931 bases of DNA from Escherichia coli (GTDB lineage: Bacteria; Pseudomonadota; Gammaproteobacteria; Enterobacterales; Enterobacteriaceae). Shown here in pieces: positions 1 to 931 of this stretch. The position numbers were made by a program, and so were the translations under genes. The stretch lies in NCBI RefSeq assembly GCF_003334255.1, contig NZ_QOWU01000183.1; one strand, given 5' to 3'. Numbering within the stretch: position 1 is the stretch's first letter; every line of letters starts with the position of its first letter. The notes under the pieces are model-generated. The model worked only from the letters and a program-made list of their open reading frames with translations. It was not told the DNA's origin and made no database searches.

Positions 1-2
1 CG

Positions 3-931
3 ATGGCAATGATGGCGGATCGCTACTTCACCACCAAAAAGGACGGCAAAACTTACTACATTAAACTTCATGATCCGCGCCTGATGCGTGCGATGAAGAA
101 CATGGGGCCGGAAACCAGTAACGCCGTAATCCGTACGCTGGGGAAAGTTAACCGCTTCCTGGCAACGGTGAACACGTCGTATAACCCGGAATTTCTGGTC
201 AGTAACTTCATCCGTGACGTGCAGACTGCGGTGATGAACCTGAAGGCTGAGCAGGGAAGGAGCGACGGTAAACTGAAAGAGCTGGATAACTTATCCGCGC
301 TGGCTGTGGTGAAAGACAGCCGTTCCGCCATGTCAGCCGTATACGCCAGTCTGCGGGGTAAAACCCTCACGGGCAAAGGCGCACAGTGGCAGAAAGTGTG
401 GAAAGAGTTTGTTGAGGACGGAGGTAAAACCGGCTGGTTTAACATGGGTGACCTTGAGGGCCAGCAGAAGGAAATGGATCGCCTTGTGTCGCTGGCGAAG
501 GGCGGATGGAAAGGCCAGAGTATCGGTGCATGGCATTCGTTCCTGAACCTGGTCGAGGATGCCAACGGCGCGGTTGAAAACGCTCTGCGTCTTTCTGCCT
601 ATAAACACGCCCGTGATGCCGGTTTGTCACGCCAGCAGGCGGCGTCTCTTGCCAAAAACATGACGGTGAACTTTAACCGTCGTGGTGAGCAGGGGATGCT
701 GATGAACTCGCTGTACATGTTTGCCAACGCCAGCATTCAGGGGACCGCAAACCTGGTGAGAACGCTCGGACATCTTAATGGCGACGGGCCGTTACCGGAG
801 CGCCTTCGCTGGAAGAATCTCAATGTACCGCAGAAAATCGTGCTTGCAGCTGTGGGAGCGGGTTATCTGCTTGGCTCGCTTAACCGCAGTGTGGCGGGTG
901 AGGATGATGACGGGGTTAACTGGTACGACAA
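3..931 (+). CDS. Partial CDS for a hypothetical protein of unknown function (309 codons visible; 3' end truncated by the window, 5' end undetermined). Translation begins MAMMADRYFTTKKDGKTYYIKLHDPRLMRAMKNMGPETSNAVIRTLGKVNRFLATVNTSYNPEFLVSNFIRDVQTAVMNLKAEQGRSDGKLKELDNLSALAVVKDSRSAMSAVYASLRGKTLTGKGAQWQKVWKEFVEDGGKTGWFNMGDLEGQQKEMDRLVSLAKGGWKGQSIGAWHSFLNLVEDANGAVENALRLSAYKHARDAGLSRQQAASLAKNMTVNFNRRGEQGMLMNSLYMFANASIQGTANLVRTLGHLNGDGPLPERLRWKNLNVPQKIVLAAVGAGYLLGSLNRSVAGEDDDGVNWYD...
   Basis: Seen in sequence: + frame 3 is open from nt 3 to the window end with no stop, while + frame 1 stops at nt 10-12 (tga) and + frame 2 stops within the first ~90 nt (taa). Codon choice is typical of highly used enterobacterial codons, and the translated protein has a plausible globular composition. 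The supplied ORF track omits it, presumably because it has no stop inside the window. Function is not assigned: I cannot run a homology search and do not recognise a diagnostic motif. Confidence 0.85.
   Translation, partial: MAMMADRYFTTKKDGKTYYIKLHDPRLMRAMKNMGPETSNAVIRTLGKVNRFLATVNTSYNPEFLVSNFIRDVQTAVMNLKAEQGRSDGKLKELDNLSALAVVKDSRSAMSAVYASLRGKTLTGKGAQWQKVWKEFVEDGGKTGWFNMGDLEGQQKEMDRLVSLAKGGWKGQSIGAWHSFLNLVEDANGAVENALRLSAYKHARDAGLSRQQAASLAKNMTVNFNRRGEQGMLMNSLYMFANASIQGTANLVRTLGHLNGDGPLPERLRWKNLNVPQKIVLAAVGAGYLLGSLNRSVAGEDDDGVNWYD

Follow-up and report, generated by a model that had tools for sequence, protein, structure and literature searches.

The 931-nt window is an internal segment of the giant polyvalent virion-protein gene of a Sepvirinae-type Escherichia coli prophage

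The window, i.e. the whole 931-nt stretch of E. coli DNA analysed here, is an ordinary internal coding part of a very large virion-protein gene that has already been catalogued. The plus-strand frame starting at base 3 runs uninterrupted across all 931 nt, with 309 codons and no stop, and the remaining two plus-strand frames contain many stops. The list of open reading frames (ORFs) in the window held only short ORFs and one antisense ORF of 165 aa. The segment belongs to an 8,385-nt gene, and includes neither its start nor its stop codon. The features of the window, with residues numbered along the 2,794-aa protein and model residues along the AlphaFold2 model of its C-terminal module, are the following:

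1–931, plus strand: internal coding segment, residues 2172–2480 of 2,794, from the open frame and the 100% match to L001 20001–20931 of strain SCU-104
24–68, plus strand: last two strands of a five-stranded β-sheet subdomain, from the AlphaFold2 model (E300–305 and E308–314)
68–565, minus strand: antisense shadow ORF of 165 aa, not a gene, judged by shared wobble positions, more non-synonymous changes and composition
171–251, plus strand: motif NTSYNPEF..SNF.RD.QTA..NL..E (positions with at least 90% identity in 40 sequences), helical in the AlphaFold2 model
555–602, plus strand: motif ED.N.A.EN..RLS.Y, within a long helix (model residues 461–497)
639–752, plus strand: block AASLAKN.TVNFNR.GE.G...N.LY.F.NA..QGTAN, the most conserved of the entire module
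825–893, plus strand: Gly/Ala-rich, moderately hydrophobic helix VPQKIVLAAVGAGYLLGSLNRSV (aa 2446–2468), predicted at model residues 567–590
918–931, plus strand: first four residues of the LPD38 match (aa 2477–2682), the remainder of which lies downstream, from Pfam scans of C-terminal fragments

Compared with three relatives, namely an Stx2a phage, an EDL933 copy and PhiR5_2 (all counts in this order), the window differs mainly at third codon positions, which hold 33 of 40, 45 of 55 and 15 of 20 substitutions; the ratios of synonymous to non-synonymous changes are 32:7, 41:10 and 15:4. The position-3 bias and the synonymous excess therefore indicate that the plus frame is under purifying selection. 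Codon-position counts alone cannot separate the two strands, as their wobble positions coincide; the strand was decided by the comparison of synonymous and non-synonymous changes in addition to protein homology. The antisense ORF is open in all three relatives, and encodes a Ser/Leu/Arg/Pro-rich product. Over positions 68–565 it shows 6, 12 and 4 non-synonymous changes, compared to 3, 5 and 1 in the plus frame. It was rejected as a gene because it shares the wobble positions of the plus frame and has more non-synonymous changes; the same coincidence, via codon bias, keeps it open.

Searches for non-coding signals gave a similarly plain picture of the window. ARAGORN found no tRNA or tmRNA, Tandem Repeats Finder found no tandem array even at score 30, and no sigma-70-like promoter was found against 0.4 expected. 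One terminator-like site, a minus-strand hairpin at 681–662, compares with 1.0 expected in shuffles. A search of Rfam at E≤1 yielded no family at gathering score; the sole match, the archaeal snoRNA model sR2, scored 16.7 bits (E 0.45), below its gathering score of 42, and was rejected. The direct and inverted repeats are two-copy and imperfect, 10–17 nt long with copies hundreds of bases apart, and none rises above chance. The GC content is even throughout (0.51–0.58). RNA folding of the entire window gave z = -2.49 over 20 shuffles, which we regard as weak and unspecific for a GC3-rich coding sequence. The idea that the coding sequence harbors an antisense gene or a non-coding element has thus hardly any probability: the open antisense frame, the minus-strand hairpin and the folding score could be cited in its favor, but the first is held open by codon bias while accumulating more non-synonymous changes, the terminator count equals the chance expectation, and Rfam, tRNA and repeat signals are absent. 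In other words, the original prediction correctly described the window as wholly coding, free of spacer, promoter, terminator, repeat, CRISPR-like or tRNA signals.

The window is 100% identical to segments of the E. coli chromosomes SCU-104, UCPROB-001 and UCPROB-002 and of phage GER2. In SCU-104, it lies within the coding sequence L001 13490–21874, the product of which (WP_174147770.1, 2,794 aa) is named “LPD38 domain-containing protein”. RefSeq naming of near-identical copies is inconsistent, being either “LPD38” or “LPD5” domain-containing protein. In total, 427 E. coli records match the window, mostly at 90–99% identity; they represent 426 of 5,426 complete genomes. The segment is thus carried by ~8% of complete E. 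coli genomes, some of which have two or three copies. A further 186 matching records are phages, all of the Stx-type/Sepvirinae, at 90–100% identity. Four matches are labelled as plasmids and may represent phage-plasmids or assembly artefacts; one of these is a 212-kb “plasmid” of an EDL933 assembly.

In GER2 (MG710528), the giant gene is split into two ORFs (L002 10793–14791 and 17522–21874) by an IS66-family element, the transposase ORF of which lies on the minus strand at L002 14818–16389 (E 1.4e-141). The window might accordingly stem from a copy disrupted as in GER2, a 3′ pseudogene remnant from which no full-length protein is expressed. The identity to GER2 over the window would fit this reading; however, the intact 8,385-nt gene is equally 100% identical in the three E. 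coli chromosomes, and we consider a remnant unlikely. In the GER2 record, the whole giant-gene region L002 10793–21874 is without annotation. Moreover, five more phage genes lie downstream of its “attR” feature, and the prophage boundary as deposited seems to be in the wrong place.

The intact gene of SCU-104 resides in a prophage of 61.9 kb between argW and yfdC. A 25-nt exact repeat, the att core TTATATCCATTTAACTAAGAGGACA, bounds the ~61.9-kb element on both sides. Of the late genes, the giant gene is the last one ahead of attR, with its stop codon at L001 21874. The flanking features are as follows:

L001 12142–13404: gene of a 420-aa hypothetical protein, directly upstream of the giant gene
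L001 21997–22021: att core copy 1, exact repeat, 122 nt past the stop codon of the giant gene
L003 17240–21263: interval from Q to the lysis genes, with HsdM, an intact HsdS, a fragmentary HsdS, a YXWGXW-repeat protein and a Hok/Gef toxin
L003 42138–42162: att core copy 2, in the 5′ part of tRNA-Arg (argW), beside the integrase gene

Tail-fibre genes, Ail/Lom, Hok/Gef and four small genes are found upstream of the giant gene, followed by the 420-aa gene. Judged by its position, we take the 420-aa gene to be the counterpart of Sp5 ORF79 (421 aa; essential, tail formation). In phage JC1, the 510-aa virion-associated gp68 precedes the giant gene. It is possible that the 420-aa protein here and gp68 in JC1 represent a conserved upstream partner of the giant protein. 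Farther upstream are the gene of an N4-gp56-family major capsid protein, a lysis cassette, the antiterminator Q and replication genes, as well as genes of a Cro/CI-type regulator and a LexA-family repressor, recombination genes, toxin-antitoxin pairs and an MT-A70 methylase. Just 3′ of the stop codon of the giant gene and outside the window, a GC-rich hairpin GCCCCGTACGGAAGTGCGGGGC at L001 ~21881–21905 is likely the transcription terminator of the late operon.

Stx phages carry stx between Q and the lysis genes. The SCU-104 argW prophage has no stx, and its Q-to-lysis interval bears the hsd genes listed above; the HsdM encoded there is the methylase of a type I restriction-modification system. 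The prophage is an stx-negative Sepvirinae element (933W/Sp5/phi24B-like) with defence cargo. According to the original prediction, any assignment to a prophage, a defence island or another system would depend on flanking sequence; it had proposed a search of the flanks for integrases, attachment sites, phage structural modules or defence genes, and a comparison of GC content and codon usage with the host. Information from outside the window was indeed needed, and the flanks of the 100% match place the gene in a prophage. Flanks as such were not strictly required, as the window itself matches the 186 Stx-type/Sepvirinae records. The search of the flanks found all four kinds of feature: a tyrosine integrase adjoining tRNA-Arg (argW) at the prophage end opposite the giant gene, the argW att site, a podophage structural module, and the defence or addiction genes HsdM/HsdS, RelE/ParE-HigA and Hok/Gef. 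In composition, the GC content amounts to 0.549 for the window and 0.543 for the giant gene, as opposed to 0.486 for the adjacent host DNA; the GC3 of the window is 0.654, and that of the adjacent host genes 0.512.

The giant protein contains the following domains and motifs:

aa 1051–1200: LPD5 (Pfam, 1.3e-44)
aa ~1182–1440: zincin-like HEWFH/LPD1 region
aa 1284 and 1551: HExxH motifs
aa 1361–1440: LPD1 (Pfam, 2.9e-23)
aa 1750–1840: MuF_C/PBECR (Pfam MuF_C, 9.5e-18)
aa 2477–2682: LPD38 (Pfam, 9.4e-49)

With several effector and LPD domains including LPD38 in one polypeptide, the product is a phage-type polyvalent protein. It is collinear over the full length with PHROG 616 (residues 1–2794 against profile 1–2793), a PHROG without assigned function. 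This collinearity, the nucleotide identity of 90–100% and the position as last gene assign it to the giant late proteins of Sepvirinae. The window gene hence encodes the giant polyvalent virion protein of an Stx-type (Sepvirinae) phage or prophage with a short tail, and is an orthologue of Sp5 ORF80/ECs1242 and phi24B gp47. Scans of all 2,794 residues against Pfam and NCBIfam found no methyltransferase or helicase domain, and no AAA+ or P-loop family appeared among the Pfam and NCBIfam matches. A COG1483 AAA+ ATPase domain was reported for Sp5 ORF80 in 2016. The NCBIfam model CLCA_X matched aa 1182–1437, in the zincin region and outside the window; its 152 bits fall short of the cut-off of 260, and no name was taken from it. 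For the window translation alone, no Pfam family was matched; the only hit, WXG100 at E 0.22, was treated as noise. The window protein matched none of the PADLOC families of anti-phage defence; a DruE/SNF2 match of 15.2 bits (E 6.8e-4) was likewise treated as noise.

Compared to the copy analysed here, Sp5 ORF80, the “LPD38 domain-containing protein” of 933W/EDL933 and phi24B gp47 are orthologues with 94–98% nucleotide identity over the window, near-equal in length, encoded by the last late gene before attR, and equipped with LPD5, LPD1, MuF_C and LPD38. They differ by a few percent, mostly at synonymous sites, and in context: the present copy is located in an stx-negative argW–yfdC prophage with HsdM/HsdS at the moron position. 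Published data on these orthologues and on more distant homologues place the protein in virions, and demonstrate that it is essential in two phages. Sp5 ORF80 (ECs1242, 2,793 aa) is essential, and its deletion is non-infective, with DNA-filled heads to which the tail-fibre antibody does not bind (PMC5155283). The gp47 of phi24B (2,811 aa, with the same domains) was abundant in virions by proteomics, yet not visible in the cryo-EM map or the portal-tail-fibre model, and the authors of that study proposed that it is carried inside the capsid as an ejection protein (bioRxiv 10.64898/2026.04.10.717836). Among the homologues, JC1 gp69, a 4,515-aa protein with LPD38 at 4195–4401 and a lytic-transglycosylase-like N-terminus, was detected in virions by mass spectrometry (PMC9144972), and PTXU04 gp25 is needed for plaque formation (PMC11879866). 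The cryo-EM preprint on PhiXacm4-11 mentions no comparable giant protein.

The Sp5 phenotype was read by its authors as a tail-assembly defect, and ORF80 was classed with the tail-formation genes (PMC5155283). Accordingly, the giant protein including its C-terminal module might be a tail-assembly or tail-structural factor that builds or attaches the short tail and is not ejected, and the gene order, with the giant gene following the tail-fibre genes in the late region, would agree with this. Against it stand the presence of phi24B gp47 in virions despite its absence from the resolved portal-tail-fibre model, and a content of zincin, PBECR/MuF_C and LPD domains typical of delivered effector proteins (PMC5512222). 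Moreover, the failure of tail attachment could be secondary to the loss of an internal, portal-proximal protein. On balance, we consider a tail factor rather improbable.

The window lies within ~600 residues of the protein that are covered by no Pfam family. A word-indexed search for homologues returned only fragments shorter than 550 aa, which are uninformative on architecture; an exhaustive search of the 309-aa window segment against 1.84 billion representative proteins (50%-identity clusters) was used instead. It found 7,797 matching clusters at E≤1e-3, of which 1,542 reached E≤1e-30. The best 150 of the 7,797 include fragments as short as ~220 aa as well as proteins of 650–5,181 aa; where these 150 matches are full-length, the window-like segment ends ~310 aa before the C-terminus. 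We aligned residues 1880–2794 with 39 homologues of 35–56% identity. In all 40 sequences, LPD38 follows the window-like segment, whereas the N-terminal domains vary, including InPase, ART-PolyVal, PBECR3, GGDEF and LPD1/5; a 4,494-aa homologue has RadC in its N-terminal part. Altogether, a constant C-terminal module is placed behind variable enzymatic heads. This module is a conserved, mostly helical unit of ~900 residues (aa ~1880–2794) ending in LPD38, and the window forms its middle third.

AlphaFold2 prediction on the module alignment yielded one confident fold over 915 residues, with a mean pLDDT of 84.4 and a pTM of 0.82. Helices make up most of the model (md11684440685), which has a single small five-stranded sheet, and the window corresponds to model residues 293–601. 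Ten of the 15 invariant positions in the 40-sequence alignment fall within the window. They include G2186 (nt 45–47), N2239 and D2243 in the motif at 171–251, N2359, E2363 and R2367 in the motif at 555–602, and N2394, N2396 and G2399 in the block at 639–752. Mean column identity reaches the maximum of the module, 0.70–0.78, in the model blocks at 481–540. The helix at residues 2446–2468, one of only two moderately hydrophobic segments of this kind in the 2,794-aa protein, has a 19-residue Kyte-Doolittle mean of 1.35, below the usual transmembrane cut-off of 1.6; it is a candidate membrane-active element.

Structural similarity search of the model against BFVD revealed end-to-end matches with TM-scores of 0.6–0.86 to the C-terminal pieces of numerous polyvalent proteins of phages, at identities down to 13–15% and including those of PTXU04 and Ralstonia phage Alix. 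One match is a 955-aa protein with little beyond the module itself. No solved structure resembling the module was found by sequence or fold. Among isolated phages, tblastn located the segment in Sepvirinae, many Vibrio phages, Ralstonia phages including GP4, Bcep22-like Burkholderia phages, PTXU04 and Bacillus phage Pony. The giant protein thus has the ~900-aa LPD38-ending module in common with Bcep22 gp75, JC1 gp69, the “DarB-like” protein of Ralstonia phage GP4 and PTXU04 gp25. Iyer et al. (2017) described LPD38 as a domain found in phage-type polyvalent proteins only, and did not settle its function (PMC5512222). Across these homologues, the module has the same fold, with 24–40% identity over the window by tblastn. 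Phage-type polyvalent proteins are encoded in the virion modules of ~60-kb podophages, and are virion-associated (JC1) or essential (PTXU04). Their N-terminal cargo differs, being a lytic transglycosylase, a methylase and a helicase in JC1, and ART, InPase, RelA/SpoT, GGDEF or RadC in other homologues.

Similar to the giant protein, DarB of phage P1 is a large protein; it is packaged in the virion, injected, and protects the incoming DNA, and its name has been passed on to LPD38-bearing proteins. In another reading, the giant protein would be a pure counter-defence carrier of the DarB type, and the window a scaffold or an uncharacterised enzyme domain without a role in assembly or DNA delivery. 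In its support, PHROG 10089 (“DarB-like antirestriction”) matches the protein, the homologues of Bcep22-like and Ralstonia phages are annotated as DarB-like, and the invariant polar residues of the window (N, D, E and R) are of an enzyme-like kind. However, P1 DarB is defined by an N6-adenine methyltransferase and a superfamily-2 helicase domain, whereas the giant protein has neither and is not a member of the DarB family. The match to PHROG 10089 is restricted to aa 2355–2682, and the DarB label travels with the common C-terminal module only. Moreover, the essentiality in two different phages in the laboratory is unexpected for a pure anti-defence factor. We therefore find a pure counter-defence carrier quite improbable.

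As background, the podophage ejection proteins T7 gp14–gp16 and P22 gp7/gp20/gp16 and the N4 virion RNA polymerase are stored in the head, exit through the short tail, and bridge the envelope or enter the cell. An N-terminal lytic transglycosylase occurs in T7 gp16 and in some LPD38 proteins. The mode of action that we propose for the giant protein is alike, and this prophage has a capsid protein of the N4-gp56 family. No similarity by sequence or fold was found to T7 gp14–16 or P22 gp7/16/20, nor to any other solved structure, and the parallel is one of analogy only.

The best explanation overall, which we hold with good confidence, is that the window is an internal piece of a giant Sepvirinae polyvalent gene. 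For the C-terminal module of the encoded protein, the most probable role would be that of an encapsidation and ejection chassis. The detailed role of the module, a constant chassis for packaging into the head, exit through the tail, and bridging of or entry through the envelope, has in our estimate about an even chance of being correct. In this scheme, the module would get the giant protein packed into the head near the portal. On infection, it would leave via the tail, either together with the DNA or before it; once outside the virion, it might contribute to building or anchoring a trans-envelope conduit, and it would bring the variable enzymatic domains of the N-terminal part into the cell. 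The polar motifs conserved in the window may provide the core contacts of the module, and the helix at residues 2446–2468 would be the candidate membrane-active element. Against the chassis speak the hydrophobicity of this helix, below the usual transmembrane threshold, the lack of similarity to the T7 and P22 ejection proteins, and the published reading of the Sp5 phenotype as a tail-assembly defect; the invariant Asn, Asp, Glu and Arg residues could equally mark an unrecognised enzyme site. More broadly, we tentatively propose, at slightly less than even probability, that the ~900-aa fold is a previously undefined encapsidation and ejection module, the invariant chassis of thousands of phage polyvalent proteins. 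If true, this would account for the loading of giant effectors into the heads of 933W-, GP4- and Bcep22-type podophages, as well as for their essentiality.

The gene itself is already known, as it is annotated in hundreds of genomes and studied in close relatives, and the window contains no boundary, regulatory signal or new system. The original statement on the absence of such signals is correct but of little consequence. The window nevertheless covers a highly conserved part of a phage module that is very widespread and lacks both a family model and a solved structure. The giant protein to which this module belongs is essential in medically important Stx phages. Defining the module would sharpen an annotation that now alternates between “LPD38”, “LPD5”, “DarB-like” and “hypothetical”, and would guide work on how short-tailed Stx phages deliver their DNA.
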